From Candidatus Omnitrophota bacterium (GTDB taxonomy: Bacteria; Omnitrophota; Omnitrophia; Omnitrophales; Aquincolibacteriaceae), in NCBI GenBank assembly GCA_043821445.1, contig JBDRCT010000049.1:3872-67871 (forward strand): 64,000 bases of DNA, given 5' to 3'. The notes beneath the pieces are model-generated. The model worked only from the letters and a program-made list of their open reading frames with translations. It was not told the DNA's origin and made no database searches. Shown piece by piece: positions 35,223 to 56,640 of this stretch (positions are counted from its first letter, which is position 1; each line of letters begins with the position of its first letter). The position numbers and the translations under genes are program-made.

Positions 35223-38200
35223 GTGAACCACTCTCGGTTATTTAAAACGCTCATTGCGCTTTTCACCGTTGTCACGTTTTCAACGACAAGCGTGATCTGG
35301 GCTCCGGACAGTTTTGCCGTGGCACAAGCGATCCGTGTTCCGGCTCCTGTTGCTCCCGAAGTTCCCATCCCTTATCAGGCCAAGCTTGATCCCGGCATTC
35401 AATTTTCAATCCCTCAGGAACTTGGGACGCTTCAATATTTCAAGGCCGGCAAAGGCCCGATGGTCGTTCATCTCCAGACCGCGCACGGTCATTATCAAGC
35501 ACAGCAACGGATCAGGGCGCTTCTGCATCATTTGGACAAACAGTATGGTATCAAAACACTCCTCGTAGAAGGCAGCGCGTTCAAGCTCGATCCCTCGATC
35601 CTGAATTTCTTTCCGAAAGATCCCAAGCTCACGCAAAAGGTCAATGACGCGCTCACGAAGCAAGCGCTTGTGAAAGGGCCGGAGCTTTATTTATTGGATG
35701 AGTTAAACGGTAAAACGAGTCCTGCGCCGCAAGCATTCGGCATCGAAAACCTTGAAGCGTACCGCGAAAACGGCCTGTCGTTCATCGATGTCCTGAAAGA
35801 AAAAAAGAAAACGGAGAAATTCCTCGCCTCCATGAACGAAGGGATCGAGCGTCTTTCCGCGGCGTACCTCAATGACGCGCTGAGGAATTATCTGAAGCAG
35901 CTTGAAGGTTTTGAAAAGAACCAGCTCCCGCTTGATGCGTGGCTATCCCTTCTGAAAAAAGAAGCGCTGAAGCGGCTGAAGCTCGATCTGACACAGCCGG
36001 GTTCCCAGCTCGACTGGCCGATGCTCGTTCGCGTTTTTAAGGTGCAGGAGCTTTCTTCAAAATTCGATAAAGATGCGTTCATGAAGGAGCGGACGGAATT
36101 TCTTAAAGTTCTGAAGCGCTTTCTTCCATCATCCTATGCTCAGATCGAGCAACTGCTCGAATCGGAACAGGCCAGCCGGCAATTACCTGCTCCCGAAACA
36201 GGCCTGCTTTTCGAGAACATGGTCAAGGCCCTGCCGCGCGATTTCAATTACGAGGCCTACCCGGACGTTTGTTATTTCGTTGGGCGTCTGCTTCTTCAAA
36301 GCGAATTGAAAGCACCGGAATTGATGCAAGAGGCCGAGAAGCTTTCCTCGAAAGTCGCGGACAAACTTGCCAAGACGCAGGCCGAAAAAAATCTCGTGGC
36401 ACTTCTGAAAGATTACCGGCTGTTGCAGAAGTTGTTCGCGCTAGAGCTCACTCCCGCTGATTATGATCAAATTCTTGGAGCGCGGAAGGCGGATGGTGGA
36501 GGACGATTGAAGCCTTCCAATCTTGTTAAGCAATTGAACGGCGCCATCCTCCATCCTTCATCCGGTATCCAAAGAGTTAAAGACGTTAAATTTACCCACA
36601 TCGCCGAACTTAATCAGTTATTCGACGCGGCCATGAAATTTTACGCCGGAGTGAAAGAGCGCGACGGTTTGATGGAGCAGATGATCGAAAAACGCCTCCG
36701 AGAGACCGGCGCCGGCAAAGTAGCGGTCATTACCGGCGGTTTCCACTCCGAACCATTCAAAAATTATTTTTCGTCGAAGGATTATTCGTACGCTCTTATC
36801 TCGCCGCGGATCACGGAAAGCGATGAAATAGGACATCAGGCGTATGTGGAGAATATGCTGAACTTTGCGCAACATTTACAGCGCAACGCGTCCGCCACAA
36901 TGCGTCGGTCGGATCCGTCCTCCGGCGGACAACGCGCAACGCGCAACGTAAGCAATTCTGCGTTGAGCGCGAGCGAGGCGACAAGAGAACTCGAATTCCT
37001 TTCTGACCCGCAAGTCTTGGTAGGTGATTACGGCATCAACGCCGCCGCCGTGCGCATCGAAGTCCGCAAGATCGTCTCCACCGTCGCCGGAAGGACGGCG
37101 CTGTTACAGACTATAGACCGCAGCCTACAGCCTACAGCAAAAGCTTTGGGTCCTCAGTCCCCGGATTCTGTTCTTCCGTCTGAAAAATCCCGCTCCGAGG
37201 CGAGAGCTGAGAAAAAGCCCGTAACGATTTCACGGAGGTTAATTGTTCTGTGGGGGACCGCAGCGGCAGTGGGCGGTCTATTGGCTATGGCATGCAGGTC
37301 GATTGCTGCACCGAGCGAAGTCAAGCTGGCTGTCAGCATTTCGTCTGCTCCAAACCTCACCCCGGCCGATCTTACCGGGTTTCCCGAAGCACCCAATCTT
37401 TTTACAACGATCTTTAACCCGGGCAGAGCCACGGTGCAGATCCTGGGGGATGATCAGGGACGAGGCATGCACTTTGCTTTTAATACGGGAACCGATGGTT
37501 ATGTGGGTGCAGGACTCGAGTTTTTTTTACCGGGAGTTAAAGATTCGGCAAATTTAAGTTCCTTGAATGAATTGCGTTTTGAGCTTCACGGGAATGTTCC
37601 GGGTGGCAAGGTCAAAATGGATGTCATCGATGCCGATGGCAAGAAGGTTACTGTTTACTTAACCGGTATTTCCACAACGGAAGGAAGAATCTGGCAAATT
37701 CCGGTATCGATCCTTCAGGGCGTTAATATGGTCCGGATCCGCGACATTAATTTTGTGGCGGAAGGACCTCAGAACTTTAGCGGAGAACTCCACGTTAAGT
37801 ACAATAAACCCTCCGCAAGCCGTTCGGAAATGCGCGGGGAGGAACGATTCACGAAAGAACAAATCCAGTCAGCGCTGAAGGATTTTCAACCAACGTGGCT
37901 CGATTATGCGTTTGTCGAGACCGGCGCAAAGCGCAGGATTGACGCCGCCAACTTTCTCGGGGAAACCAAAGACCCTCGCGTTGCTGACGCGTTGATCAAT
38001 GTTTTGAAAAGTGATAAGCATCCCGGTGTTCGAGTCGCGGTCGCCAAAGCTCTCGGCAAAATTACAGATCCCCGTGTTTTTCCGGCACTGAGAGATGTTT
38101 TTGGGAAAGAAAAAAATGACGATGTGTGGTTCACGATCGCGGGAGTCCTTTGGGAGGCAGAAGACCCGTGGATCCACACACGGATGGCCGCTGCTCTCGC

Positions 38201-41200
38201 GGATCATTCCCCCTTTGTCCGGAAAATGGCCGTCCAGTTTTTTGGGGCGAATCATGTAGCCAGTGCCATTTCCATGTTGCGGAATGCTTTAAATGATGAT
38301 TCCGAAGATGTAAGAACAGCTGCCGCGGCGGCTCTCGAATGGATCACGACCACATCGCTAGCAGAGATTTCCCGCTCGGAAATGCGAGAGGTGACAAAAC
38401 CATTGGCCGAGGCGGTTGCCGGGAGGATCCGTTATGCCGCAGCTTTGGGGAAGCCCGGTTCCGGGAAGGGAACCTTACTACAGCGATTTGTTGCGGAACT
38501 GAACCGTCATCTTGACAAAAACCATCCGTACGTGATCTTAAGCACCGGAGATGTTTTTCGGGCGATCGCGGAAAAAGTTGCCGCGAAGAAAGAAGGAAGA
38601 GTCCCGGACCTCCAAAAGGTAGGGATCTTTGAGAGCTTTACCGTCCCGGATTCCGTCATCAGCGCGATGCAGGAAGGGAAAATCATCTCAGATGAGATCA
38701 CGATCGATCTCGTCAATGAAGTTTTACGGCTGGATTTCTTCAAAAAAGCCCGCGGTATTTTCTTTGACGGTTTTCCGCGGTCCGCCGGGCAATTGGCGGC
38801 ATTAGAGCAAGGCAAGATAGGGATCGGGGATAAGCCGCTGGTCATGGATTTTAATTTTATTTTGGACATCGAAGATCAAACCGTGTACAAGCGCGCCGCC
38901 AGCCGTGTTGCCGAAGAAAAACTTGCCGCTGTTCGCGAAAAAAGAGAACCCAAGATCCGCAAGGATGACCTTCCTGAAAGGGTGAAGACGCGGATCGAGG
39001 ATTATGAGTCGGTCACGAGCCCGGCGGTCGAAACGAAGCGCGGTCAACCCGATACCCTCACAATCAATGCCAACGTGAAGCCGATCGACGGCGTTTATGA
39101 AGATTTCCTCCAAGGACTTGACGCGTGGATCGCAATGCACCCCCCTCGCTCGGAAGCGCGGTTCACAGCTGGGGAAGAGGGGATCGTCCGTCGGGCAATG
39201 AAAGATTTGGAGATGGGTTGGTTTGATTCTTTTTTTGAACGCGAGATCGCGACGCCGCGGCGCGTGGCCGCCGTTCAAAGCCTTGATGCGATCAGAGCAT
39301 CTCTGAGGGTTTCCATATTAAGGGATCTTTTGGCGAAAGAGAAAAATGGCGATGTATGGTACGCGATGGCATCCGCTCTTTGGCAAGCAGGGGACCCGTG
39401 GATCCGCCAGCGGACGGTCGCCGCTCTCGGGGAGGACTCCTCCTCTATACGCCAAATGGCCGCCCAACTTCTTGGGGAGAATCATGAAACAAGCGCTTTT
39501 TCCGCGTTGACGGCGGCCTTGAATGATCCTGATGAAAGTGTGCGGGAAGCCGCCTCGGAGGCTCTCGAATGGATCATGACCACATCGCCGGTACTGGCGG
39601 CCCGCTCAGAAGTGAGGGCGAAACTTCAGTCGCCTTTTTTTACATTATCCGGCGAACGAAAGATTGGTGAATCGATCCGCATGGAGAGGATGTGGCCTGA
39701 GATTCATGAAATGAAGATCTTGATCTCACTCCATCGGGGGAAAAACGGGAAATTGCTATTAGATCTATGGACACATACTCCGGTAATTGCCGGGAAGATC
39801 CACACGGATGCGGTCAATTGGGAACTGGACGGTCCCGAGGAGGAGATCCTCGCGGTTTTTCAACGTCTCCGGGAACCCGCGGTACAGCAGCCGTTGCGTG
39901 AAGCCATTGAGCGAGATCTAGAACCAGGTGATTTTTATTCAGAAAATGAAAGGTTTGAAACGAAGCTTACTCCGTGGGTCGAGAAGCTTTTAAATGGGGA
40001 GATCGTTTCCGTCGTTACGGGGCAATCAGATCTCAGTCAGCAGCCTCCAGCAGAAGCTGCCGCGAGAGTTTTAGCCGAAAGCCGCTCCGAGATGAGGCTG
40101 ATGCCGCTGCTGGCGCTTGCGGACGGGAGTGGGCTTGCCGGCGTGATCAGCCAACTGCGTCAAGCCTGGCACGAAAACGCTCTTGTGATCGTTGCGGTCG
40201 GCCTGGGTCTTTGTGAAATAGGTTATTGGGCCTATAGAACGTGGCAGTTAAGGAAAAAGCTTAGCCACTTTCCCAATGCCGTGAAAAGAGTGAAGGATGC
40301 GGTTAGGAGGTTTGCTGAAAAGACAGAAGAGGACGAACGGCGTTCGTCTGCGAATGATCTCGAATCCATTTATGTCGACGGATTTTTGACGCGTATTCTA
40401 TGGCGCAATATTCCGGATTCAAAACTTTTACAGATCGAACAAGAAATCAAAGAAGGTCGGGATCCGGTCCTTCAATTAGTGCCTGACGGGAATGAAGTTC
40501 TAATGGAATGGACGAGACAAGTTCTTGAACTCCGCTCTTCGGCCTATTTTCCGAGTGGCGGCGAGGATCAATACGTCTCATCAGAACCCCAGGGATGGTA
40601 CGGGTCGATTGAAGTCACCGCCGGCGAGCAGTCCCGCTCGGAAGCAAGAGGAACGCCGAAAGGAGGCGATTGGGAAGCCGCGGCGCGGGCCAGGGTATCA
40701 GAAATACAACGAAAAGAGCAAGAGGAGGAGGCCCGGGCGTTGGCTAAGATGGAAGGAGAGCGAGAGGCGATTCGGAGCATGACAACGCCACAGCTTCTTG
40801 CGCTGAAGGAAAGAGAAGTCATGGCGTTCAGCGCGGCACAGATCCAGGCGTTGACGCCTGCGCAGCTTCGTGTGCTGGAAGGGACAGATCAGGAGAAGTG
40901 GCTGAATGCCCGAGCTAATGAATTGCTGGCACAGCAAGCAAAGATTATGAAAAAGTCCCGCTCGGAAGTGAGGGTTTTTGGAAATGATAGGTTCATACCG
41001 CTCATGCGGGCAACGGTACTGTCACTCGCGATAGCAGGCCTCTCGGGATGCGCTCCAGTAATTGCAGGAATTAAAACTATGCCTTTACCTCAAGGCGAGG
41101 AATTGGGTATTCCGTCGCCCCTAACCATTGAAGAATTTCAGGAAGCAATAAACAATATGTTTGATCCCGATTCACCCACTCCACCGGATCTCAGTCTGGC

Positions 41201-44200: not shown

Positions 44201-47200
44201 CGATTGGTTTGACACGTTCTTCATTAAGAACGCAACGCAACGGCGCGTGGGCGCTATCAAAGTCCTCGGTGAGAGCAAAGATCCGCGCGCGGTTCCAGCA
44301 TTGACCGGGTTATTAAAGGATGCCGCGGTCCGTTCGTCCGCCGCTGAAACGCTCACTTCTATTAGATCCAGCGTTCCCGCGTTGCAGGCCGAAGCCGGGT
44401 TTACAACGGAGGAAGCGGGGATATTCCGCCGGGCAATAGAGGACCTGAAATTCCAATGGACGGATCTTTTCCTGTTTGAGAGAGAAACACGCCGGCGTGT
44501 GGGTGCCGTCAAAAGTCTTGGTGCGATCCAAAATCCGGCGCTCATTCTCGAGTTATACAGTCTTCTGGTGAAAGAGGAAAAAGAAAAATGGGTCAAGACC
44601 GATGAGTGGTTCGCGATCGCGGGAGTCCTTTTGCGAAAAGGGGAAACCCGGATCCTCGAAACAGTTTTTGATTCTCTTACGGATGATATCCCCGTTGTCC
44701 GCAAACGGGCCGCCGATTTTCTCGGGGAAAATCATGTGGTGAGCGCCGTTCCGGCGCTGACCCTTGCTTTGAAAGACAGTTTTGTGAAATTCGCTGCCGC
44801 AGCAGCGATCGAAAAGATCACGGGCACACCGCCGTTCAAGAAAAAGGGAGCCTTCGAATTTTTTGGCGTGAATCCTGTCGTGTTGCCGAGGACGACCTTT
44901 TTTGCTTCAGGGGGCTTGGGTTTTCTTTTCGAATTAAAGCTCATTTCGCCGTTCGTGAAGCCAGGGGACCCCCTTGGGAAAATCGCGGGCCTTCTTCTGT
45001 TGTCCTTGGGAAGCATCATCGGAAGCTATATCCTGATATCGATCGTTCAAAACAGGATCGTCGGCCTTGACCGTCTCGGACGGCCGCTTGTGAAAAAAGA
45101 AAAAGCGTCTGCCCGCTCGGAGGCGCGGAACTTGGCATTGAGCGTGCCGGCAGGGCTTCTCGAAAAGGCTTCCGATTGGTTGCATAGTCCGTGGGGGATC
45201 GTGGACTGGATCGTGGGGGGCGTTCTTTTTGGCATGGCAGCGGCTTTCGCGTTTGCCACCCTTTTGGTGGCCCTTTATACGATCGCTTCTATTTGGACCT
45301 CTTTCCAGAAAAGTGCCATCAGGAGTTTGGAAGAGAAGGAGGGCTTTGCCGCGATAGAGTTTCTGAGGGGCCTGTTGCAGAAAACCAGGGGATTTTCTTA
45401 TCTGATCTTTTCGGATGTTTATAACGAAACCGAACTTGCGGCTATTGCCGCCCTGACACACCTCAATGATTCCTTCTTGACCGGTTTTTTAACTTCGGGC
45501 GAAGGGTTTAACCGGTATCTCCGCGCCAGTGACGAGGTCAAAGCGGCCGTCGACCGCTGGAGTCCTGAAGCGTTCAGCGCCCAGATCCTCCGGAACTTAT
45601 CGTCGAATGATCTTTCACCGGCGCAATTGATTGAGAAAAGGGAGGATCTTGCCGGGCTCGGGATCTTGAGGCCTTTTTTGGTGGCGGCCTTCTCTCATTC
45701 CGATCCCAAGATCCAACGGATGGGGCTGGAAATTTTGGCAGGCTACGAGTTCTTCACGTTTGGCAGGGTGCCCACGGACCATGAAATATTCGATCCGGTG
45801 ATCCGGGAAGCCCTCGAGCCGTTTTTGCAAAAGGCGATCTCCCAGACTTCCGACGACGACCTTTTCGATAAGACAGCGATGATCATGATCCGGCAGGGTC
45901 GTTCCGGTGAGATCGTGCCCGGGGCGCTCCAGAGAATGTCCGCCGGGAACCCGGACCACTTTCCGCTGCTTGTCAAAGAACTTGCGACCGCGGAATATCT
46001 TGACGCGACTTTATTCCATCCCGACTTGAAGATCCGGGCACTGGGGCTAAAAGCCATCGAAGATACCGGTACGGTCGCTGCTCAAGACCAGTATGCTGAG
46101 AAATATCAGGAACAGCTCATTCCATTACTTCAGGATCCGGACAATGATGTTTGCAGCGGGGCAGCTATTTTACTGACCGTCGTGGGTCACGGAAAATCCG
46201 TGCTTCAAGCCGCGGCGTCCAGGAATTGGAACGAATTGCCGGAGCTTGTTAATTATTTTGATCTGCATTGGAAAGAAGCGGTCGAACTCGCCGGGCCCGA
46301 ATCGTTGCCTCTTTTGAAGTTATTGATCGACCGGAGGAAAGCCTGGGCATACGCGGACGACCCGATTGACGGTGTGGATGCCGCTATTCTTGGGAAGAGC
46401 CAGGCAGGATTGAAATTCGACCGGAGCCACATTATCGCTAAAAAAACAGAAGAACTCCGGGAATTGAAAGCAGCGGTGGACCGTTTGTCCGCCCGTTCTG
46501 AGGTCCGCCATTTGCGCCGGTTGGGCGCTCCGGACAGGGACATCGGCGACATCGTGGAAACCGTACGGGAGTCCCTGGACGGGGCAGTGACGGACGATGA
46601 ATCGCTTTGGGCCGCGCAGCAGCGGATGGGGGATTTGCCGGACCTGCTGAAAGGGCCCAGGACCGAACGGGAACTTGGGATCGAGATCGGTGAGTCCTGG
46701 AAAATACCGAATGTTCATTATCAATCCCGCCGTTCCGAAGCCCGTTCCGAAATCAGGGAACGTCTCGCACCGGTTTTCAGGGCTTTTGGGATTGATGAAT
46801 CGAGCGGAAAAACGGAAATTGAAAAAACGAAAAACCAGGCGGACCGATGGTATGTCGAAGGAATGACGCGGCAGCATGTGCATCCCAGAGGTACCGGAAC
46901 TGACGGCGCGGACGATAAGGACGGCCCCTATGCGCCGCTCCACATAAGAAATGAGAAAGGCTCGCTTAGCGAAGTTTCTCACACTGGAAATGCCGTGGTC
47001 ACGGCGATGATGGAGGACCAGGAGTTGCAATCGGTCGGGGTCTATCAACGTGCTTTTCTTGATCATCATCCCCGGGAGCGGGAGTATCTTGAGGCCGCTG
47101 CCAAGACAAATCTCATCTGGAATACGCTCGACGGCGGTATCGGCGAGAGTTTGATGCGTGAGGCGTGGCTTTTGAACAAGGGGCTTCGATCGCGTTTGAA

Positions 47201-50200
47201 GGATATTTTATCTGCGGGTGATAAGGCGGATCCGATCTATCAGGAGGCGTTGGCCGCTCTCAAGGACGCCGAAGAAAGCGGCAAGACGAGGGATATCCTT
47301 GCGGCACTCAGGAAGATCGAGAAGTTGGGCGGTTTTGACCCGCTCCAGATCAAGATGGGAGCGAAAGGAACAGACCTGGGACGCATAGAACAGATCCGTG
47401 ATCATGAGCTCTTCGTCGGAGATGCGGAGGCCCGGTTGCTTTTCATGATAGATCTCGGGCGGAGCGGACAATTCGATAGGGTCGCGTTCCAGCCTCTTGT
47501 GAATGATCCATCGAAGGCCTCTTATATCACATTACTGAAGAAGCCCTGCCTCTGGGACCTTGTTGAGGGACGCCCCCAGCCCAGATCCTATTGGACGGCG
47601 CTCTTGGACGCCGGGGTCAAGGTCATGACAATGGTCGAACAGAAAGAGCTTCCGAAATTTGAGATCGCATTGGGCGAGATCGTTGGATTTCCAACGGCCG
47701 ATGCGAAGGATGCTCGTAAGAGGCAGCCGGGCGGTCATGGGCAGTTAGGGGTCTATTTTGTGGTGGATTTTACGGAAAATGCCCCGGCGAAAGACGGGCG
47801 GCACCATATCCGCTTTTTCGGGAACGGGGACAACCGAAAGGGAAATCCGGAGGCGATCGTGGCCGGGTTCGCGATCGTTGAAAGATTGCCGATCATAAAG
47901 ATCACGACCGCCGCCACCGCGATCGATAAAAAAGGCGGCAAGGAAGTGGTCCGCATCATTCAAAAGCTGGTCCGGGGAGTCAAAAAAATCTTTAATGTTC
48001 TTGATCAATGGGAAGAAATCGATGCCATCAATGCGGGCCAGGAAAAGATCTTTTACGCTGCGGGACAGCGGCACGGTTTTGGCCAGGAAGGCAGGCAGCT
48101 TTTCAATACGAATCTGTTCTATTTTAATATCGATATGCTCCACTCGATCCTGGTCGAGATGCGCCGGATCACGGGAGATGGTGAATTTTTGGACGGGATC
48201 ATGCCCTTCTTATTCGACAAGAGCGCCAAGGCGCAGGAAATTGACGGCAAAAAATACGTTTCGATGGATTCGGCGATCGGGTATGTGGTTCATAAGCTGA
48301 ACACCTTTTACACGACGGATCCCCGCTTTGAATCTCTGAGACAAGAGTACGGTCCCCAGCTTCTCTACTATATAAACTATGGCCGTGATATTTTTGCGCC
48401 CAAGAAAAAAGCAGAGGACCAGTATCTACAAGAAGGAACGGACTATTACGGCCCATTCGATGAAACCATCAAGAATTTCCGCGACGCGGTACCGGGGCTT
48501 ACACCTCCCGGATTCAGTCTTACGGATCCTTTTGAAAAGGACGGAAGTGCCGTGGACAAGAATGGAAATCCTATTGATTCCAAGTTCTGGACCGAAGCCC
48601 AGCATTGGCTGGATTCCTTGGGACTTTCGCGCGTTCGACGAATGACCTCACTGAAGGTGGAGGGCCGCGTGACGCTTCGAAATGCGGAATATATCGGCGA
48701 CGTGGAGATCATCAACCGGTATGGTCGCAAAGACAAATCGAATCGGGCCCAGAGAGTTGTTTTAAGCAGCGGCCAGTACCTTGAGCAGCTCAAAGCGCGC
48801 GGTTTTTGGGCCGATGATCACTTGGTGCTCGAGGATCTCCGCATCACGATCGACGAAGATGGCCGGTTGCTTACGATGGCGATTTCAATGGCCCATACTC
48901 CGGAAGGCGCTTTGAGGATCCGTGATACAGAAGAGGCCATAAAGCTATTTGATGAGTTAGGGGCCCGGGGAGCCAATGTTCGTGTCGGACGCGGTTTCAC
49001 GGTCGAAAGAGGCGGAGAACTCATCATTGATCCCAGGGATTTCGGTCCAGGTGTGGATTTCTTCGTCGAGTCCAACGTGGTGATCGCCAGTGGCGTTACG
49101 ATCAACCTGCAGCTTGACGGGAAAAATCACGTGATAATCGATAGCGGAACTGTTTTTTCCGGTCCGTCCGGGCTCAGACTTGATCTGGTGCTTCAAGAAG
49201 GCGAGTGGCTCCACATTGGTAAGGGTGCTTTACAGGATGTGATCGCCGGGCTAGCGTCGGAAGAAACCCCGAGAGGGAAAACGATGACGCTCTTTCTTCA
49301 TTACCGAGAGCTTGTTAAAGCGGATGAGCTCGAAAGGGCGTTTTCTATCCGTAAGATCATAAACTCATTGGTATCCTACCCTGTGGGGGATGCCGGGATA
49401 TTCCGGAACGCTCAATGGGTAAAGAATCTGATCGACGAATTTGAGAGGACGCCTGGCCACCACTCCCGTTCTGAAGTACGGGGAGCGCTGGGGTGGTTCG
49501 AGAACGGGAGAGTACTGACCTATGAAAGAATGATCGCGGAAAGAAAAAAGGAGATCGATAAGCTCCGGCGGAGCATTACGGATGCCAAAACGCCTGAAGC
49601 GAGACGGCTGGTCCCCGGCTACGAAGCCAGGGTTCGTGACGCCCAGGGAGCTATTACCGGTTATCAGAGGCAATTATTTGCCGCCGCGATTCCCGAACCA
49701 GAAATTCTGGCGCGACTTTTGGCCGTCGTCCCGCCGCAAACACTCTACGATATCTATCAGGCTGCCAGGGCGGTTCTGCCGTTCGATGGGGCCATTCAGC
49801 CGCGGGATATGCTTCGCTTTTTCTATGGGGTGCCGTCTCAGGGTCAGGGCCCGACGATGCAGAACTATGTTTCAGCGATCGGAAATTTTCTCATGGAAAG
49901 ACAGGAAGCGCTGGTGCCTGCTTCGGCCGACGCAAGATCTTTGGAGATGCCGCAAATCCCGCGTGAACCCTTTATTCGTTTCTATCCATTACAACTCGTG
50001 GCTCTGATACAAATGGCTCGTGGGTTCTCACGCGAAACGCTCCTTGAGATGCTCCGCGTTCAAACCGTTCCTGCGGCGGAGCAAGAAAGTTCTCAGGTAG
50101 GGACCGTGAACGGCGCAAAAACAGAGCTCTTTGCTCGTCCGGCGAATGACCAAGTACTGTTTCTCGCTGTTTTTCTCAAGAACTTATTGGCTGCGGTTGA

Positions 50201-52631
50201 CCAGAAGGCGGCAGCTCCCAATACTCAGAAATTGATCGCGGAGGCGGAAACACTCAAGGATGTTTTTGCCTCTTTGCTTGCCAGGGAACCACGGCTTTTG
50301 AAAGCTCAACCTCAACCGGTGGGAGTCTTGAGGAGCGAAGTAAGGTTCCAGGTGACGCCTGTCCGGGAAGTGCCAGGACAAGAAAAGACGTTCGGAGTGG
50401 CTATTTCCAATGGGAGCGGTAGCCATGCCGGTCATTTTACGGCTGCGATTCCACAAAAGGCGGCTGAAAGGACCTATGAGATCCTTTTTCCGGACGAGGG
50501 GAAGGGTTCGAGCCAGGCACAATTCACGGTGATGGTCGATGACCAGGGGATTTTTAGGAATGTCAGCGACATCCGGGTCGTAACACCGGTGGCTAAAAGC
50601 CTTGCGGTGGCATCTCGTGTAAACCTCGGAGGCAAAAAAACCACCGCGGAGCGTTTCGAAAAAATCAAAGGTTCCATAGAAGACTTCTTAAGATCAAAGA
50701 TCGGACAGCCCTGGGGTCCGGAAATTTTTCGTACGTCTGCGGTGCCGGCTGTTCAAGAACAGGGCGCCTCCGGCGCGGTCACCGCGGCTAACGTGTCTAC
50801 GGTACGGAGTGAAATTCGGGGCGATGAACGCCGGGTCGCGGAGCTCCGGGGTGAAATGGTGGATGAACCTCTTGACGGTAAACCCGAGATCGTGTGGTCT
50901 GAAGAAGTACTCGCCAGATACGGTGGTGTTTCGTCGGCAGTTGCTCAGGGGCTGAAGTACTGGACGCGCGTTCTGTATACTCGCTGGCCGGCGGACGTGG
51001 AACGGGCCAAAACTCTGGGTGATACGCACCGAAGGAACCAAATGACTTATGAGTTGGCGGTCGCCGCGAATCTTCTGAAGAAAATGGCCACCGACTTAAC
51101 AAATGAGCAGATCAGCAAACTCACGGCCCTGGATTTTACGCAAGTGGTCTCAATTCTTGAAACCGCTATTGCAGACGGAGAGGCGCTTCAAAAAGCCGGT
51201 AGAGAATCCCGCCCTGAGGGGAGTTATGAACAGTTAAAAACCCTCAAGGAATCTCCTGACTTGCTCAGGATCGTTTTAAATAAATTGAAAAGCACTTACG
51301 AGATGGAAGCTCAGAAAGGTCGGGATGTGCGTCAGGCCCAAGGACTCATGACATCCGGCGCGGCTCCGGAGACCAGCGGTTCTATGGCAAATCTTGTTCC
51401 GGTCGCGGAAGAGCTTTTGGGGCAGGCAGGCTTGAAATTTAGCGCTGCGGAGGTCGGAAAACTTAGACCGACCCAAATCAGGGAGTTGATCGGATTTCTC
51501 AGGGCCGTTGCGCACAGCCGGGCGATCGGTTCTTCCGAAGGGGCGGCGCAGTTTGGGCCGCTCGAAAATGTTCCCGCGCCGGTTGCAGAGATCCTGGCGG
51601 AACTGCAAAGGATCCAGCAGGCCGGGGTTTCGGAAACACAGACGCCGCCGTCCGTGACTCCGGAGCCGGGCCGTTCTGAACTGAGGCTTTCGAATTTCAA
51701 TGGTGTCATCACACCCGAAGAGATCACGTTGATCGAACATTTTTATTTCAACCTTCTTCCGATGCAACTTCGCGAGTTGATCGAGGCAGCCGGAGGCCGG
51801 AAGGCCGTTCTCGAAGCACTACGGAAAATTTCAGGCATCACCGTGAGCGAGGCGGTCGTGGATATTCCGGACACTGACGTTCTCGATAAATTGTTTGCTC
51901 CCGAGGCGTCTCTTGCGATCCCGGAAGCAGCCGGCAGGGGATTGGCAGTTACAAAGACCGTGACGTCGACGGTCAAAGATCTCGGAGGCAAGGTTTTCCT
52001 CGGGCAGGACATTCTGGCAAAGCTCACCGCAGAGAATCCCCGGGCCCTTTTCTATCTTTTGAAAACCTATGCGGCTTTTACGGAACAAAATGAGCCACCG
52101 GTTCTTTTGACCGTCGGGTCACGGCAAGTCCTCCTCAAGCAGATCGAGAATGCTTTAGTCAACAAGAGTTCCGGCCTTGTGGGACTCGAGATCGTGGAAC
52201 GTAGCGCGTTGCTTCAGGCTCTTAAGCAGGAAAAGATCCTTGATGTGATCGAGCCTGCGCAGGGAACGAGCGAAGCGCAGATCATCAACGAACTTGCGGT
52301 CACGGCCCAGGGCGGGATCGCGTCGCTTCATCTGAGTGCGGACATGCTGCCGGGCTCATTACAGGGTGTTCACTTTGCATTCGGCGCAAAGAACATCGGG
52401 GCCCGCGATCTCATGGTGGCTTCCGTGCTCGCGATCGTTCTCAAATCCGTGGCAGACCTCATTCATAATGTTCCGGACGCAAAGATCAGGGCCGGGCTTC
52501 TCGGTAAATTCGTGGCAGAGAACTTGCCGGGCGTCAACGCTCAGGCACAAGGGAATTCTTTTGTGATCACCCAGATCACGAAGCTTGCCCAAGAATTTGC
52601 AGCCCGGGCCTACATCGCAACACGAGCTTAA
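35223..52631 (+). CDS. giant multidomain secreted/membrane protein (5802 aa), mosaic of nucleotide-kinase-like, sugar-nucleotidyltransferase-like, HEAT-repeat and TM modules separated by RSE[AVMIL]R motifs
   Basis: 17.4 kb frame without stop; GTG start 7 nt after AAGGA RBS; N-terminal signal peptide 'MNHSRLFKTLIALFTVVTFSTTSVIWA'; synonymous variation in repeated motifs argues for protein-level selection. Confidence 0.8.
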   Translation: MNHSRLFKTLIALFTVVTFSTTSVIWAPDSFAVAQAIRVPAPVAPEVPIPYQAKLDPGIQFSIPQELGTLQYFKAGKGPMVVHLQTAHGHYQAQQRIRALLHHLDKQYGIKTLLVEGSAFKLDPSILNFFPKDPKLTQKVNDALTKQALVKGPELYLLDELNGKTSPAPQAFGIENLEAYRENGLSFIDVLKEKKKTEKFLASMNEGIERLSAAYLNDALRNYLKQLEGFEKNQLPLDAWLSLLKKEALKRLKLDLTQPGSQLDWPMLVRVFKVQELSSKFDKDAFMKERTEFLKVLKRFLPSSYAQIEQLLESEQASRQLPAPETGLLFENMVKALPRDFNYEAYPDVCYFVGRLLLQSELKAPELMQEAEKLSSKVADKLAKTQAEKNLVALLKDYRLLQKLFALELTPADYDQILGARKADGGGRLKPSNLVKQLNGAILHPSSGIQRVKDVKFTHIAELNQLFDAAMKFYAGVKERDGLMEQMIEKRLRETGAGKVAVITGGFHSEPFKNYFSSKDYSYALISPRITESDEIGHQAYVENMLNFAQHLQRNASATMRRSDPSSGGQRATRNVSNSALSASEATRELEFLSDPQVLVGDYGINAAAVRIEVRKIVSTVAGRTALLQTIDRSLQPTAKALGPQSPDSVLPSEKSRSEARAEKKPVTISRRLIVLWGTAAAVGGLLAMACRSIAAPSEVKLAVSISSAPNLTPADLTGFPEAPNLFTTIFNPGRATVQILGDDQGRGMHFAFNTGTDGYVGAGLEFFLPGVKDSANLSSLNELRFELHGNVPGGKVKMDVIDADGKKVTVYLTGISTTEGRIWQIPVSILQGVNMVRIRDINFVAEGPQNFSGELHVKYNKPSASRSEMRGEERFTKEQIQSALKDFQPTWLDYAFVETGAKRRIDAANFLGETKDPRVADALINVLKSDKHPGVRVAVAKALGKITDPRVFPALRDVFGKEKNDDVWFTIAGVLWEAEDPWIHTRMAAALADHSPFVRKMAVQFFGANHVASAISMLRNALNDDSEDVRTAAAAALEWITTTSLAEISRSEMREVTKPLAEAVAGRIRYAAALGKPGSGKGTLLQRFVAELNRHLDKNHPYVILSTGDVFRAIAEKVAAKKEGRVPDLQKVGIFESFTVPDSVISAMQEGKIISDEITIDLVNEVLRLDFFKKARGIFFDGFPRSAGQLAALEQGKIGIGDKPLVMDFNFILDIEDQTVYKRAASRVAEEKLAAVREKREPKIRKDDLPERVKTRIEDYESVTSPAVETKRGQPDTLTINANVKPIDGVYEDFLQGLDAWIAMHPPRSEARFTAGEEGIVRRAMKDLEMGWFDSFFEREIATPRRVAAVQSLDAIRASLRVSILRDLLAKEKNGDVWYAMASALWQAGDPWIRQRTVAALGEDSSSIRQMAAQLLGENHETSAFSALTAALNDPDESVREAASEALEWIMTTSPVLAARSEVRAKLQSPFFTLSGERKIGESIRMERMWPEIHEMKILISLHRGKNGKLLLDLWTHTPVIAGKIHTDAVNWELDGPEEEILAVFQRLREPAVQQPLREAIERDLEPGDFYSENERFETKLTPWVEKLLNGEIVSVVTGQSDLSQQPPAEAAARVLAESRSEMRLMPLLALADGSGLAGVISQLRQAWHENALVIVAVGLGLCEIGYWAYRTWQLRKKLSHFPNAVKRVKDAVRRFAEKTEEDERRSSANDLESIYVDGFLTRILWRNIPDSKLLQIEQEIKEGRDPVLQLVPDGNEVLMEWTRQVLELRSSAYFPSGGEDQYVSSEPQGWYGSIEVTAGEQSRSEARGTPKGGDWEAAARARVSEIQRKEQEEEARALAKMEGEREAIRSMTTPQLLALKEREVMAFSAAQIQALTPAQLRVLEGTDQEKWLNARANELLAQQAKIMKKSRSEVRVFGNDRFIPLMRATVLSLAIAGLSGCAPVIAGIKTMPLPQGEELGIPSPLTIEEFQEAINNMFDPDSPTPPDLSLATFREWQRDAKYMEAFTRKYLRALGYQIRSEDWLRGFAIWYAAPDHGDRPYWEYQEEIYERLGEWEANGYIIRFSVPIFPFGRSEVRNTSVQAEQPKHPMFITLEVNKDLQGLDFGDVEKAIASGKMAIAEVSVDWARKIKETYPNDVYTIFITPLSENQIRERMQETGQTRDAVIFEEMSRRQKERALEKPTPEEKQLSRAKGAVIEMARQNEYNAVIVSNELKDLERDDVRWAGDEGAAVVEQFMAAVDAARKAGKKLILYSGPSATGKSPLWNQIQKKHGDQFSRIVLYTTRGLRPGEKDGVDFHFRSVNDLQNLMNEKNGRSEARASEETPADRLISGRKFTVIDVAENPYAIKVISDPDYKSLILYGFSNAARALGDLVVPFFITNKLSVTIDGISQDSTVILQKKVMPASDQFQTYLENNDLPKAIELLKKMVEIDQEIMRRGYILTDFKVENFGITADGNVLLLDPTGVVDGLGRTQPPEDFYHYYNQNNFLFVKSGSYHRFYDDYKNNKHAKELFQAFRDLTGVDFTGILQTTKMNVMIALALSESFDPDNPFSKHVQHARHYLEGLTPFAALSQQLKEPVAMPAIQVEAESSLRGFLGHEQRREFNLQDLSIWNEEKAINIHVPLQETKLVTIESRSEVRDTQTTPSRSAARQTAQIGRTWKDLFKENFNWGIEEGLITAGFSIGLYAGLFGLPFLMPLGLNPAHTALIGTLLGGALYPAVVAVRAKWLQAAKTEDAGGFDVKTFVDTLLEASREARSLFDSEQLDLANNIESIVFPRIRARKLTYAQRAAAKAELNGRLQRVKEEIAQMETSGNLSGNSQSVLNARLREIENSSSDFEAALTFRSEIRQILEALRKEKHVAGVISTFIFGLAGFLFGIYQGISFFSRSNIRPYSTDDVFWMAIFVLLGGELLGVAGGIIGLAVYGVVYAGFSIVRLVVHAFWSVAGSVRRSGYRAGRGLAGEERTTGHAPKRSEVKVTEREFQRALKDLETDWFDTFFIKNATQRRVGAIKVLGESKDPRAVPALTGLLKDAAVRSSAAETLTSIRSSVPALQAEAGFTTEEAGIFRRAIEDLKFQWTDLFLFERETRRRVGAVKSLGAIQNPALILELYSLLVKEEKEKWVKTDEWFAIAGVLLRKGETRILETVFDSLTDDIPVVRKRAADFLGENHVVSAVPALTLALKDSFVKFAAAAAIEKITGTPPFKKKGAFEFFGVNPVVLPRTTFFASGGLGFLFELKLISPFVKPGDPLGKIAGLLLLSLGSIIGSYILISIVQNRIVGLDRLGRPLVKKEKASARSEARNLALSVPAGLLEKASDWLHSPWGIVDWIVGGVLFGMAAAFAFATLLVALYTIASIWTSFQKSAIRSLEEKEGFAAIEFLRGLLQKTRGFSYLIFSDVYNETELAAIAALTHLNDSFLTGFLTSGEGFNRYLRASDEVKAAVDRWSPEAFSAQILRNLSSNDLSPAQLIEKREDLAGLGILRPFLVAAFSHSDPKIQRMGLEILAGYEFFTFGRVPTDHEIFDPVIREALEPFLQKAISQTSDDDLFDKTAMIMIRQGRSGEIVPGALQRMSAGNPDHFPLLVKELATAEYLDATLFHPDLKIRALGLKAIEDTGTVAAQDQYAEKYQEQLIPLLQDPDNDVCSGAAILLTVVGHGKSVLQAAASRNWNELPELVNYFDLHWKEAVELAGPESLPLLKLLIDRRKAWAYADDPIDGVDAAILGKSQAGLKFDRSHIIAKKTEELRELKAAVDRLSARSEVRHLRRLGAPDRDIGDIVETVRESLDGAVTDDESLWAAQQRMGDLPDLLKGPRTERELGIEIGESWKIPNVHYQSRRSEARSEIRERLAPVFRAFGIDESSGKTEIEKTKNQADRWYVEGMTRQHVHPRGTGTDGADDKDGPYAPLHIRNEKGSLSEVSHTGNAVVTAMMEDQELQSVGVYQRAFLDHHPREREYLEAAAKTNLIWNTLDGGIGESLMREAWLLNKGLRSRLKDILSAGDKADPIYQEALAALKDAEESGKTRDILAALRKIEKLGGFDPLQIKMGAKGTDLGRIEQIRDHELFVGDAEARLLFMIDLGRSGQFDRVAFQPLVNDPSKASYITLLKKPCLWDLVEGRPQPRSYWTALLDAGVKVMTMVEQKELPKFEIALGEIVGFPTADAKDARKRQPGGHGQLGVYFVVDFTENAPAKDGRHHIRFFGNGDNRKGNPEAIVAGFAIVERLPIIKITTAATAIDKKGGKEVVRIIQKLVRGVKKIFNVLDQWEEIDAINAGQEKIFYAAGQRHGFGQEGRQLFNTNLFYFNIDMLHSILVEMRRITGDGEFLDGIMPFLFDKSAKAQEIDGKKYVSMDSAIGYVVHKLNTFYTTDPRFESLRQEYGPQLLYYINYGRDIFAPKKKAEDQYLQEGTDYYGPFDETIKNFRDAVPGLTPPGFSLTDPFEKDGSAVDKNGNPIDSKFWTEAQHWLDSLGLSRVRRMTSLKVEGRVTLRNAEYIGDVEIINRYGRKDKSNRAQRVVLSSGQYLEQLKARGFWADDHLVLEDLRITIDEDGRLLTMAISMAHTPEGALRIRDTEEAIKLFDELGARGANVRVGRGFTVERGGELIIDPRDFGPGVDFFVESNVVIASGVTINLQLDGKNHVIIDSGTVFSGPSGLRLDLVLQEGEWLHIGKGALQDVIAGLASEETPRGKTMTLFLHYRELVKADELERAFSIRKIINSLVSYPVGDAGIFRNAQWVKNLIDEFERTPGHHSRSEVRGALGWFENGRVLTYERMIAERKKEIDKLRRSITDAKTPEARRLVPGYEARVRDAQGAITGYQRQLFAAAIPEPEILARLLAVVPPQTLYDIYQAARAVLPFDGAIQPRDMLRFFYGVPSQGQGPTMQNYVSAIGNFLMERQEALVPASADARSLEMPQIPREPFIRFYPLQLVALIQMARGFSRETLLEMLRVQTVPAAEQESSQVGTVNGAKTELFARPANDQVLFLAVFLKNLLAAVDQKAAAPNTQKLIAEAETLKDVFASLLAREPRLLKAQPQPVGVLRSEVRFQVTPVREVPGQEKTFGVAISNGSGSHAGHFTAAIPQKAAERTYEILFPDEGKGSSQAQFTVMVDDQGIFRNVSDIRVVTPVAKSLAVASRVNLGGKKTTAERFEKIKGSIEDFLRSKIGQPWGPEIFRTSAVPAVQEQGASGAVTAANVSTVRSEIRGDERRVAELRGEMVDEPLDGKPEIVWSEEVLARYGGVSSAVAQGLKYWTRVLYTRWPADVERAKTLGDTHRRNQMTYELAVAANLLKKMATDLTNEQISKLTALDFTQVVSILETAIADGEALQKAGRESRPEGSYEQLKTLKESPDLLRIVLNKLKSTYEMEAQKGRDVRQAQGLMTSGAAPETSGSMANLVPVAEELLGQAGLKFSAAEVGKLRPTQIRELIGFLRAVAHSRAIGSSEGAAQFGPLENVPAPVAEILAELQRIQQAGVSETQTPPSVTPEPGRSELRLSNFNGVITPEEITLIEHFYFNLLPMQLRELIEAAGGRKAVLEALRKISGITVSEAVVDIPDTDVLDKLFAPEASLAIPEAAGRGLAVTKTVTSTVKDLGGKVFLGQDILAKLTAENPRALFYLLKTYAAFTEQNEPPVLLTVGSRQVLLKQIENALVNKSSGLVGLEIVERSALLQALKQEKILDVIEPAQGTSEAQIINELAVTAQGGIASLHLSADMLPGSLQGVHFAFGAKNIGARDLMVASVLAIVLKSVADLIHNVPDAKIRAGLLGKFVAENLPGVNAQAQGNSFVITQITKLAQEFAARAYIATRA
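35440..36850 (+). other. giant ORF module: TraB/GumN/PrgY(TIKI)-like domain (tentative)
   Basis: 'MVVHLQTAHGHYQ...LLVEGS' N-motif and 'VAVITGGFHSEP' C-motif resemble TraB-family GxxH signatures. Confidence 0.3.
36880..36980. repeat. in-frame copy of the REP-like element (CAGCGCAACG...CAACGCGCAACGCGCAACGT..CGTTGAGCG) inside giant ORF
   Basis: matches intergenic copies at 3678/57892/59032/59952; translates as low-complexity 'QRNASATMRRSDPSSGGQRATRNVSNSALSA'. Confidence 0.5.
37206..37820 (+). other. giant ORF module: Tat/Sec-like internal signal ('SRRLIVLWGTAAAVGGLLAMA') + beta-sandwich domain
   Basis: hydrophobic h-region with AxA site directly after RSEAR motif 1. Confidence 0.4.
37850..38372 (+). 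other. giant ORF module: HEAT/PBS-lyase-like repeat block 1
   Basis: 'DPRVADALINVLKSDKHPGVRVAVAKALGKITDPRVFPAL' repeats ending '...ALEWITTTS..SRSEMR'. Confidence 0.6.
38440..39130 (+). other. giant ORF module: adenylate kinase-like domain
   Basis: 'GKPGSGKGT' P-loop, 'ILSTGDVFRA', 'FFDGFPRSAGQ' (DGFPRT motif) and LID region. Confidence 0.65.
39170..39602 (+). other. giant ORF module: HEAT repeat block 2 (paralog of block 1)
   Basis: 'KNGDVWYAMASALWQAGDPWIRQRTVAALGEDSSSIRQMAAQLLGENHETSAFSALTAALNDPDESVREAASEALEWIMTTS' closely parallels block 1. Confidence 0.6.
41004..41051 (+). other. giant ORF: internal Met + lipoprotein signal peptide with lipobox (MRATVLSLAIAGLSGC)
   Basis: n-h-LSGC pattern 10 codons after RSEVR motif 8. 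Confidence 0.5.
41520..42170 (+). other. giant ORF module: circularly permuted guanylate kinase-like domain
   Basis: C-terminal GK half first ('VYTIFITPLSENQIRERMQETGQTRD...EYNAVIVSNELKD') then N-terminal half ('LILYSGPSATGKSPL...VLYTTRGLRPGEKDGVDFHF'). Confidence 0.6.
42250..42800 (+). other. giant ORF module: eukaryotic-like kinase (ELK) fold
   Basis: 'YILTDFKVENFGI' (D-x4-N catalytic loop) and 'LLLDPTG' (DFG-like). Confidence 0.45.
44160..44830 (+). other. giant ORF module: HEAT repeat block 3
   Basis: 'FQRALKDLETDWFDTFF...RRVGAIKVLGESKDPRAVPAL' parallels blocks 1-2. Confidence 0.55.
47000..49300 (+). other. giant ORF module: UDP-glucose pyrophosphorylase (UDPGP family)-like domain with C-terminal left-handed beta-helix
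   Basis: 'NTLDGGIGESL' (LNGGLGTSMG-like) and 'QPGGHGQL' (PGHGD-like) motifs; hexapeptide-like repeats downstream. Confidence 0.45.
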
Positions 52632-52784: not shown

Positions 52785-53768
52785 ATGTCAACACGAGTTC
52801 TAAGCGGTACACGGCCCACGGGAAAACTGCATCTCGGGCACCTCCTGGGAACTCTCGAGAACTACAAGAAATTGCAAGGCCAGGATGCTTTCTTCATGAT
52901 CGCGGACCTGCATGCCCTGACCACGGAATATGAAGACAAGACCCGGATCGCGGAGGACGTGACAGAAGTTTTGATCGATTATTTGGCAAGCGGTCTCGAT
53001 CCGGCGCAGTGCACGATGTTCGTTCAAAGCGAAGTGCTGGAGCACGCCAATCTTGCGCTGCTTTTTTCGATGATCACACCGCTGGGCTGGCTGGAACGGA
53101 ACCCGACCTACAAGGACCAGCTTGCGGAACTGAAGGGCAAGGAGCTTCACACGCACGGTTTTTTGGGATATCCGGTGCTTCAGGCCGCGGACATCGCGCT
53201 TTATAAGGCCGAAAAGGTCCCGGTGGGTGAGGATCAGCTGCCGCATCTGGAACTCACCCGCGAGATCATCCGCCGGTTCTTTCATCTTTACAAGAAACAG
53301 GTCTTTCCGGAACCGGAGGCTGTGCTCACGCATGCGCCGAAAGTACCGGGGCTCGACGGCCGGAAGATGAGCAAAAGTTACGGCAACTGTATTTATCTCG
53401 CGGATTCCAAAGAAGAGGTCATCAAAAAAGTGAAGACGATGGTGACCGATCCGGCGCGGAAATTGCGGACCGATAAAGGACATCCGGAAGTTTGCCCGGT
53501 CTTTTTCTATCACAAGCTTTTTAATCAAGATCATGTGGAAACAGTCGCGCGGGAATGCCGGGACGCGGCGCGCGGCTGCGTGGATTGCAAAATGGAAATG
53601 GCCGGAAAACTGAACGGATTTATGGACCCGATACGGGAAAGACGTGAATCATGGATGAAGAAAAAAACGGAAATACGACAGATCCTCGACCGGGGAGCCA
53701 AGAGGGCGCGGGAAGTGGCGAGCCAAACCCTCAAGGAAACCCTGCAGGCGATGGGCCTGGTGTCGTAG
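52785..53768 (+). CDS. trpS: tryptophanyl-tRNA synthetase
   Basis: 'TGKLHLGHLLG' HIGH and 'KMSKS' motifs. Confidence 0.9.
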   Translation: MSTRVLSGTRPTGKLHLGHLLGTLENYKKLQGQDAFFMIADLHALTTEYEDKTRIAEDVTEVLIDYLASGLDPAQCTMFVQSEVLEHANLALLFSMITPLGWLERNPTYKDQLAELKGKELHTHGFLGYPVLQAADIALYKAEKVPVGEDQLPHLELTREIIRRFFHLYKKQVFPEPEAVLTHAPKVPGLDGRKMSKSYGNCIYLADSKEEVIKKVKTMVTDPARKLRTDKGHPEVCPVFFYHKLFNQDHVETVARECRDAARGCVDCKMEMAGKLNGFMDPIRERRESWMKKKTEIRQILDRGAKRAREVASQTLKETLQAMGLVS

Positions 53769-53809
53769 CTTCTCCCGCGACGCCTCTGGCAGAACTCTCC
53801 GGACTCCCG

Positions 53810-54556: not shown

Positions 54557-54567
54557 TATAACAACTG

Positions 54568-54640
54568 CCCAAGTGTCAAAGTATCAACGTATCAAAGCGT
54601 CAAAATGCTTTGATGCCTTGACACTCTGGAACTTTGACAC
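54568..54640. promoter_or_regulatory. shared intergenic motif block (AGTGTCAAAGTATCAA, palindrome ATCAAAGC-N8-GCTTTGAT, CCTTGACACTCTGGA, TTGACA x2)
   Basis: same 15-16-mers recur (one inverted) at 56641-56700. Confidence 0.35.
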
Positions 54641-54690
54641 AGATGAATGGATCACACATTTTGTTTTCTTAACGGGAGCTATTATAAATC

Positions 54691-55554: not shown

Positions 55555-55555
55555 C

Positions 55556-56635: not shown

Positions 56636-56640
56636 AAAAC

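Follow-up and report, generated by a model that had tools for sequence, protein, structure and literature searches.

In the MARTX toxins of Vibrio and its relatives, a long protein with conserved ends carries effectors that are reshuffled by recombination, and an internal protease cuts the linkers between the modules, acting after Leu in loosely defined sequences. Viral polyproteins, such as those processed by picornavirus 3C or flavivirus NS3, also enclose their own protease, which acts at a short recurring recognition sequence and co-evolves with it lineage by lineage. In cyanobactin PatE-type precursors, Kex2-processed repeat proteins, and nematode polyprotein antigens, recognition sequences flank the cassettes and direct dedicated proteases. 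Here, we describe a giant open reading frame (ORF) in a 64,000-nucleotide stretch of the genome of a Candidatus Omnitrophota bacterium (contig JBDRCT010000049.1 of assembly GCA_043821445.1; the whole stretch is referred to as the window), whose product, the window protein, is punctuated by 21 copies of a pentapeptide, R-S-E-(A/V/M/I/L)-R. The protein begins with a signal-peptide-like segment and an N-terminal domain (N-domain), ends with a C-terminal domain (C-domain), and belongs to a large Omnitrophota family in which the motif marks the borders of interchangeable modules and may serve as a protease recognition site.

The family resembles MARTX by analogy, in that a variable and reshuffled array lies between conserved termini. 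It differs from these toxins in several respects: Pfam found neither RTX repeats nor a C80 cysteine protease domain in the window protein, the pentapeptide is strict, a signal peptide is present rather than a type I secretion signal, and no recognizable toxin is found among the modules, which comprise housekeeping-type enzymes, HEAT scaffolds, and membrane pieces; cleavage, moreover, is only proposed. With viral polyproteins, the window protein shares a recurring recognition-type sequence at the module junctions of one ORF, whereas its gene is cellular and sits in a conserved housekeeping neighbourhood, its candidate protease has another fold, and its processing is likewise a proposal. The cassettes of the PatE, Kex2, and nematode systems are short peptides or one-domain repeats, whereas those of the window protein are unrelated full-size proteins. 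RSExR also contains neither the R-X-[KR]-R sequence nor the dibasic P2-P1 pair of Kex2/furin sites, and it departs from sortase, exosortase, and rhombosortase signals in that all copies are internal and only about 9% have a hydrophobic segment in the next 40 aa. Motif composition and internal position thus agree with a preliminary description of the window, made from the sequence alone, which did not recognize the motif as being of the sortase, PEP-CTERM, or furin type.

Among the long proteins of Omnitrophota, the Archaeovorin-type giants are encoded by genes of >90,000 bp and exceed 30,000 aa (West-Roberts et al. 2023, 10.1101/2023.11.21.568195). Omnitrophota giants have been defined by lengths of >30,000 aa or of at least 10,000 aa, and C39 or S8 peptidases have been proposed for their processing (10.1101/2023.11.21.568195, 10.64898/2026.06.07.730766). 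West-Roberts et al. suspected cleavage and stated that the cleavage points were unknown (10.1101/2023.11.21.568195), and it is an open question whether very long Omnitrophota proteins are single chains or are cut into pieces. The window protein is part of this broader and recent phenomenon of long multi-enzyme Omnitrophota proteins. It shares with the Archaeovorin and multi-enzyme clusters the phylum, HEAT repeats, metabolic enzymes, many transmembrane (TM) segments, and an architecture of signal peptide plus TM segments, and differs from Archaeovorin in being too short (5,802 aa), in its domain set and N-domain, and in having an explicit junction motif. Neither the motif nor the N-domain is mentioned in the Omnitrophota giant- and long-protein literature compared (including 10.1101/2023.11.21.568195 and 10.64898/2026.06.07.730766), and of 528 full-text hits for the pentapeptides, the 20 listed were all unrelated. 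Given their absence from the Omnitrophota giant-protein literature, the motif and the family architecture are apparently undescribed within the literature covered.

Recurrence of the motif in the giant ORF

Translation of the giant ORF reproduced exactly the count and coordinates of the preliminary description, in which the pentapeptide had been reported to recur about 21 times between positions 37191 and 51686 (aa 657 for the first copy, aa 5484 for the last). Twenty copies read RSE[AVMIL]R, and one, at aa 2974, is a relaxed RSEVK. The amino-acid composition of the ORF predicts 0.043 copies, so that the strong enrichment claimed earlier against a rough expectation of ~0.1 is confirmed, and over 2,000 shuffles of the ORF the copies averaged 0.041 and never exceeded 2, by which chance or composition is ruled out as the source of the motif. 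In a six-frame scan of the whole 64-kb window, a single match was found outside the giant ORF, inside a 20-codon stop-to-stop stretch, and none in real ORFs. Pfam recognized HEAT repeats, one adenylate kinase (ADK), and one guanylate kinase (GMK) in the window protein, with otherwise no confident match.

A family of Omnitrophota proteins with a shared architecture

The motif had initially been treated as a peculiarity of one ORF. A survey of other giant ORFs, suggested in the preliminary description, found it to recur throughout an Omnitrophota family with conserved N- and C-domains, of which it is the hallmark. With the N-terminal ~550 residues as query, the relatives recovered are annotated as Omnitrophota or Omnitrophica and combine the same N-domain with differing cargo (GT2, response regulator, aldose epimerase, isocitrate lyase/PEP mutase, and HEAT) and with copies of R[SA]ExR. 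A genome scan yielded 80 loci, of which every named one belongs to Omnitrophota, several genomes holding more than one, and HMMER retrieved at least 669 representatives (50%-identity clusters, E<=1e-30), with lengths of up to 7,823 aa and the N-domain always at the N-terminus.

The motif is concentrated in this family. Seventy-five family ORFs contain 289 strict copies in 189,898 aa (1.52 per 1,000 aa), compared with 0.09 strict copies per 1,000 aa in other stop-to-stop ORFs at the same loci, and most of the 41 copies in the latter lie within fragments or tandem neighbours of family genes. A further 138 representatives of the family together hold 578 strict copies over 417,810 aa, and RSE.R tops the repeated gapped 5-mers of 68 out of 110 long family members. 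The idea that the motif is common genome-wide, and thus equally frequent in unrelated proteins, is excluded, as the other genes of the window contain no copy and the flanking genes of the 80 loci are 17-fold poorer.

The position of the motif within family proteins is also constant. The first copy follows the TGGFH sequence of the N-domain at a median distance of 114 aa (~70-230 aa in the family definition used here), and the tail after the last copy, with a median of 278 aa, corresponds to the conserved C-domain. This placement, together with the conserved N- and C-domains, gives a fixed family architecture of signal peptide, N-domain, motif, a repeated unit of module and motif, and C-domain. 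The window protein has each of these elements: a signal peptide, a ~500-aa domain with H-x-Q-x-A-H-G, E-G-S, G-I-E, and T-G-G-F-H, a copy of R-[SAP]-E-x-R after TGGFH, more copies between modules, and a ~280-aa C-domain ending in Ala. A C-terminal Ala is present in 101 of 138 relatives, within tails of the form ...[RK/x]-[S/A/M]-Ala-COOH (AA 45, SA 40, and MA 9 times). The tail of the window protein is encoded at 52614-52628, and the conserved Ala tail recalls ssrA-like or tail-specific-protease recognition tails. A model of the C-domain (pLDDT 74) gave only generic Rossmann-like fold matches, and word-based homologue searches with a HEAT module and with the C-domain returned few proteins.

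Conservation of the motif at the peptide level

A logo of the motif flanks, also proposed in the preliminary description and built here from 479 copies, places information only in the five motif residues, with small residues favoured at -1 and -2; the residue before the last Arg is A/V/M/L/I/S/T. Pro is 3-fold depleted at +1 though enriched at -1. At the DNA level, the non-synonymous positions of the motif are fixed across the family and the synonymous ones vary. As variation is confined to synonymous sites, we conclude that selection acts on the peptide, in agreement with the earlier proposal based on synonymous codon variation in the window, although codon usage proved to be non-random. The last Arg uses all six codons at near-background frequencies family-wide, whereas CGY codons specify 84% of the first Arg residues (background 45%) and TCN codons 94% of the Ser residues (background 68%). 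In the window copies, AGR codons account for 1 of 20 first Arg residues (background 33%) and for 11 of 20 last ones. Conserved positions of the N-domain, used as a control, show a similar bias, with 70-88% CGY at Arg positions and 96% AGY at Ser118, so that the bias marks conserved sites rather than a nucleotide signal; the codon asymmetry between the two Arg residues of the motif is a minor unexplained point.

These data bear directly on the possibility that the motif is the protein footprint of a DNA-level recombination core of ~15 nt (CGY TCN GAR NNN MGN) that shuffles the cassettes. Such a core would fit both the differing module order of close relatives, in which breakpoints fall at motifs, and the preference for CGY at the first Arg and TCN at the Ser. 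Against it, synonymous positions are free, down to the first base (C or A) of the last Arg codon and the choice of codon for the hydrophobic residue, the same bias exists at ordinary conserved Arg and Ser of the N-domain, no conserved recombinase is found nearby across the loci examined, no tandem nucleotide repeats were found in the giant ORF, and within the ORF the DNA pattern occurs solely in frame (17 occurrences, with two more elsewhere). Selection for intact modules can, in addition, also yield breakpoints at motifs. A recombination core is therefore largely excluded by the synonymous-site pattern, and we consider it very improbable. More generally, a nucleotide-level signal was rejected in view of the codon bias shared by the N-domain controls, the strictly synonymous variation, and the lack of tandem repeats in the ORF. 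A role of position 4 as an internal start codon (ATG/GTG/ATH/CTG) was rejected because a third of the copies encode Ala (GCN) there.

Motifs as borders of whole proteins

Five lines of evidence, from the domains of the window protein, the permuted GMK, the domains of relatives, shuffled blocks, and motif spacing, indicate that the units delimited by motifs are entire proteins, not domains. In the window protein and in four relatives (P0033, P0055, P0057, and P0048), each Pfam domain lies within a single inter-motif segment. In the window protein, ADK is complete within aa 1056-1308 and the HEAT blocks each lie inside their own segment; the ending '...ALEWI.TTS..', reported earlier after each HEAT block, was recovered in two HEAT modules (aa 1036-1050 and 1446-1460) and does not extend to every block. 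In the segment aa 2080-2316, residues 18-97 align with GMK residues 73-170 and residues 172-233 with GMK residues 5-64, and the new termini of this circularly permuted enzyme therefore coincide with motifs 9 and 10. Among relatives, both Pfam halves of glutamate dehydrogenase lie inside one module, phosphoglucomutase behaves likewise, and a carrier-protein domain stops 7 residues short of a motif. The median module length between motifs is 184 aa, which is the size of a small protein.

The same borders emerge from the reshuffling of modules. The closest relative, L001, has an N-domain 72% identical to that of the window protein, and the BLAST blocks that the two proteins have in common (aa 1045-1314, 1804-1917, 1913-2079, and 2637-2850) run from motif to motif and are ordered differently along L001. 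When similarity blocks are taken across the whole family, 36% begin no more than 5 aa from a motif, compared with 1.3% at random (n=77 non-independent blocks). The statement in the preliminary description that motifs fall between recognizable units is thus borne out by relatives, the permuted kinase, and shuffling breakpoints, as well as by the lipoprotein-type signal peptides that follow some motifs. Very short inter-motif pieces of 4-20 aa also exist. One relative, L069, contains four tandem 20-aa units, RPEARQALRREPVPESTDSG (aa 2225-2304), and another, L047, a short inter-motif stretch, RAEARVISLRAEVR.

Hydrophobic segments downstream of motifs

A hydrophobic segment lies within 40 aa downstream of 9.4% of family motifs, compared with 3.2% upstream of motifs and 2.7% at random positions, and this asymmetry of downstream over upstream is real. 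The earlier impression that such segments follow the motifs frequently was overstated (~3-6 of 21 motifs in the window and ~10% family-wide), whereas the enrichment itself, 3.5-fold over background, stands. Several have the textbook layout of a lipoprotein signal peptide (short basic n-region, h-region, and Cys-containing lipobox), as after aa 1913 in the window protein (L-S-G-C) and in relatives L008 (1056), L013 (1392), L014 (1884), and L001 (2317); the segment past motif 1 (aa 662-700) likewise reads as a signal peptide. Under the positive-inside rule, and by our own reading of flanking charges and hydropathy, the hydrophobic segments of the window protein give conflicting orientations. Cleavage would resolve this conflict, yet the conflict is not evidence for cleavage.

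A reading without cleavage is that the motif is a docking or modification site in an intact, membrane-threaded multi-enzyme scaffold, possible partners being the HEAT modules, a targeting factor or chaperone, or an enzyme that phosphorylates Ser or modifies Arg. The motif does have the character of a linker-borne short linear motif, the window protein has more than one HEAT scaffold, and such long proteins have been described in print as membrane-anchored and intact (10.64898/2026.06.07.730766); were the chain inserted sequentially, ADK and GMK would come to lie in the cytoplasm with no cut needed, and any co-evolving binder would fit the concerted motif changes described in the next section. 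HEAT partners are harder to reconcile with the many members that have the motif yet no HEAT match (e.g., P0024 and P0045). What the motifs separate, moreover, is whole proteins and not domains; they bound a permuted enzyme, precede lipoprotein signal peptides, and can lie 4-20 aa apart, all of which are easier to understand for cut sites than for docking sites. We therefore regard uncleaved docking as rather unlikely.

Lineage-specific variants of the motif

Some relatives use a different form of the pentapeptide throughout. In L047, all 13 copies are RAExR, a form also present in L007, L018, and L027; L069 has 10 copies of RPE[SA]R, P0066 16 copies of RTExR, and L055 11 copies of LSD[SAT]R. 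Synonymous sites stay varied within each variant set. By N-domain similarity, RAE-type proteins are scattered among RSE-type ones, so that the switch from S to A arose at least five times, in separate lineages and each time across most copies of a protein. Such concerted replacement of many dispersed copies is as expected if a recognition partner changes specificity. Two paralogues in one metagenome-assembled genome (MAG) differ in this respect, L069 being of the RPE type and L076 of the RSE type.

If the partner is a protease, it need not be part of the same chain. The protein could be cut by a trans-acting enzyme, for example, a cytoplasmic Arg-specific one, with the N-domain being an exported esterase or peptidase that acts on prey or the envelope. 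This would suit the predicted export of the N-domain alongside several modules that look cytoplasmic, the negative outcome of the test for co-variation between N-domain and motif variant, and a possible N-domain-less ORF with two motifs and a C-domain. A co-varying peptidase, for which the preliminary description had suggested a search, was not found as a linked gene either: no conserved peptidase gene lies near the family genes across the loci examined, where the conserved neighbours are housekeeping genes, and a linked peptidase gene is thereby ruled out as the processing enzyme, with the N-domain remaining a candidate. The lack of a candidate protease linked to the locus counts against a trans-acting enzyme, as do the two paralogues of one MAG, whose different variants are easier to explain by specificity encoded in cis, unless the enzyme tolerates changes at position 2. 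On balance, we consider a trans-acting protease unlikely. The N-domain-less ORF, located upstream on the + strand at L056 (962 aa stop-to-stop), contains two copies of RSELR, ends with the family-type C-terminus ...QQISASA, and has no recognizable N-domain; it is possibly an N-domain-less family member or a frameshifted fragment, and bears on whether the motif needs an N-domain in cis.

The N-domain as a candidate processing enzyme

In an AF2 model of the N-domain (pLDDT 82), a small alpha/beta core is split by a ~320-residue helical insert. The fold is read as TIKI/TraB/erythromycin-esterase/ChaN-like, its core being a central parallel beta-sheet with helices on either side. One namesake of this fold, TIKI, has Wnt itself as its target. 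The TIKI superfamily has been described as grouping HopBA1, Bcr135, ChaN, and RRSP with PMT, with a catalytic 2His/2Glu motif and a His85-Glu113 pair in Bcr135; two of its members are described there as proteolytic, TIKI as a metal-dependent protease in the Wnt pathway and RRSP as a site-specific endopeptidase (PMC6254334). Residues H88, E116, E175, and H508 of the N-domain are invariant across the family, H88 and E116 having the same spacing as His85 and Glu113 of Bcr135, and where the 2His/2Glu motif has its first Glu, the family mostly has Gln or Thr. The occurrence of the same fold in RRSP, a MARTX effector, adds a further likeness to these toxins.

Unlike TIKI, TraB-PrgY, erythromycin esterase, ChaN, and RRSP, the N-domain carries the ~320-residue insert and is without sequence match to these proteins, and its hydrolytic activity is putative. 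Sequence searches returned no match in Pfam (E<=0.1), NCBIfam, or PDB profiles (E<=10), and a Foldseek comparison of the model with PDB was not significant. With a protease (TIKI) and an endopeptidase (RRSP) in the superfamily, a processing role of the N-domain is plausible by analogy. The more specific proposal that the family's own N-domain is the processing enzyme is tentative, and we see it as possible rather than probable.

The N-domains of some relatives contain two or three in-frame copies of a ~25-aa element, 'EYGVRSTA...TPYAFRRT' in P0001/P0016 and 'GGRSNP...PRND' in P0006, as if a repeated DNA element had been inserted in frame; the window protein is without them.

Proposed model and implications

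The simplest model that covers all observations is that of a cassette polyprotein with a protease recognition site at its junctions, and we give it about an even chance. In this model, the gene encodes a Sec-type signal peptide, an invariant N-terminal hydrolase domain, ~20 self-contained modules, and the conserved C-domain. The modules include ADK, the permuted GMK, HEAT scaffolds, a lipoprotein precursor, membrane segments, and others without assignment. R-S-E-(A/V/M/I/L)-R would be the short linear recognition site at the junctions, at or beside which a site-specific endopeptidase would cut and thereby free the modules as separate proteins; the depletion of Pro at +1 hints at a cut just past the last Arg. 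Modules that open with their own signal peptide or lipobox could then be exported or lipidated separately. The candidate endopeptidase would be the family's N-domain, which keeps a His-Glu-His(-Glu) set. We infer the occurrence of cleavage, the position of the scissile bond, and the identity of the enzyme, with ~20 subunits that would be released or anchored separately.

Several observations weigh against this model. The signal peptides after motifs do not prove cleavage, because internal signal-anchor segments work without a free N-terminus. Copies with S and A are mixed within some proteins, and no convergent substitution in the N-domain was found to co-vary with the S-to-A change of the motif. 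The superfamily to which the N-domain is assigned also includes esterases and haem binders. It is, furthermore, topologically awkward for one enzyme to cut all sites, because the N-domain follows a signal peptide and would lie outside the cytoplasm, whereas the ATP-using kinase modules are expected inside.

Taken in full, the cassette polyprotein may be pictured as 'operons as polyproteins', in which an ORF is cut by its own N-terminal TIKI/Ere-fold endopeptidase at R-[SAP]-E-x-R into ~20 proteins (cytoplasmic enzymes, lipoproteins, and membrane proteins), motif and enzyme co-evolve by lineage, and cassettes are swapped at the motif; this extended form is a speculative suggestion, and we put it forward with reserve. 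The motif itself supplies a testable set of junctions for a family of at least 669 clusters at 50% identity, predicts exact neo-termini, permits computational splitting into foldable units, and points to a specific candidate enzyme. If the model is true, a single ORF would allow a reduced-genome bacterium to make unrelated proteins together in stoichiometric sets, by way of a cellular self-processing polyprotein of a kind known so far mainly from viruses and MARTX toxins. For the TIKI/TraB/erythromycin-esterase superfamily, it would mean a new specificity; it would also provide a cleavage tag of five residues, for which nature offers orthogonal variants (RSE, RAE, RPE, RTE, and LSD), and the missing cleavage map for long and giant proteins of Omnitrophota.

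Features of the window protein and its neighbourhood

The coordinates of the giant ORF, its domains, modules, and motifs are collected in Table 1.

Table 1. Features of the giant ORF and its product in the window (nucleotide positions within the window; aa, residues of the window protein)
Feature	Position	Strand	Remarks
Giant ORF carrying all motif copies	35223..52631	+	GTG start; 5,802 aa, 17,409 bp; modular Omnitrophota long protein
Signal-peptide-like N-terminus	35223..35330	+	Basic n-region, hydrophobic aa 9-27, then AVAQA; homologues alike
Family-defining N-domain (~aa 60-553)	35400..36881	+	Alpha/beta core with large helical insert; invariant H88-G, E116-G-S, G-I-E175, T-G-G-F-H508; candidate processing hydrolase
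Motif 1, RSEAR (aa 657)	37191..37205	+	~100 aa past the N-domain; followed by signal-peptide-like aa 662-700
Motif 2, RSEMR (aa 867)	37821..37835	+	
Motif 3, RSEMR (aa 1051)	38373..38387	+	Closes HEAT module 872-1050
Adenylate kinase module (aa 1056-1308)	38388..39146	+	Complete ADK flanked by motifs; 84% identical to a differently placed module in relative L001
Motif 4, RSEAR (aa 1309)	39147..39161	+	
Motif 5, RSEVR (aa 1461)	39603..39617	+	Closes second HEAT module
Motif 6, RSEMR (aa 1621)	40083..40097	+	
Motif 7, RSEAR (aa 1805)	40635..40649	+	
Motif 8, RSEVR (aa 1913)	40959..40973	+	Followed by lipoprotein-type signal peptide, lipobox L-S-G-C (aa 1918-1943); orthologous copy in L001
Motif 9, RSEVR (aa 2075)	41445..41459	+	
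Circularly permuted guanylate kinase module (aa 2080-2316)	41460..42170	+	C-terminal two-thirds of GMK first, P-loop N-terminal third last
Motif 10, RSEAR (aa 2317)	42171..42185	+	
Motif 11, RSEVR (aa 2637)	43131..43145	+	
Motif 12, RSEIR (aa 2846)	43758..43772	+	Followed by TM-like segments
Motif 13, relaxed RSEVK (aa 2974)	44142..44156	+	Ahead of third HEAT module
Motif 14, RSEAR (aa 3298)	45114..45128	+	
Motif 15, RSEVR (aa 3758)	46494..46508	+	
Motifs 16 and 17, overlapping double RSEARSEIR (aa 3837-3845)	46731..46757	+	
Motif 18, RSEVR (aa 4749)	49467..49481	+	Closes 903-aa module without database match
Motif 19, RSEVR (aa 5037)	50331..50345	+	Sole copy encoded AGG AGC
Motif 20, RSEIR (aa 5195)	50805..50819	+	
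Motif 21, RSELR (aa 5484)	51672..51686	+	Directly ahead of the C-domain
Family-conserved C-domain (aa 5489-5802)	51687..52628	+	Alpha/beta; ends ...IATRA-COOH

Among the modules without a confident domain assignment, that at 42186-43130 (aa 2322-2636) weakly resembles the FAM69/PIP49 protein-kinase-like domain of Pfam (E=0.0036) and may, from this match, be a divergent kinase. No sequence relatives of the 315-aa module were found in PDB, and the 903-aa module (46758-49466) had zero matches in Pfam, NCBIfam, and PDB.

Downstream of the giant ORF, the window contains trpS, scpA, scpB, pheA, and an aminotransferase gene (52785-57891), and the region 30183-32159 is also part of the neighbourhood; at many of the 80 loci, lpxA-like, fabF, and rpsA genes lie upstream. 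This conserved housekeeping neighbourhood suggests that the locus is inherited vertically while its cargo modules turn over. Elsewhere in the window, and unrelated to the motif, are genes for tRNA-Gln(CTG) (3757-3830, - strand) and tRNA-Leu(GAG) (24475-24556, + strand).

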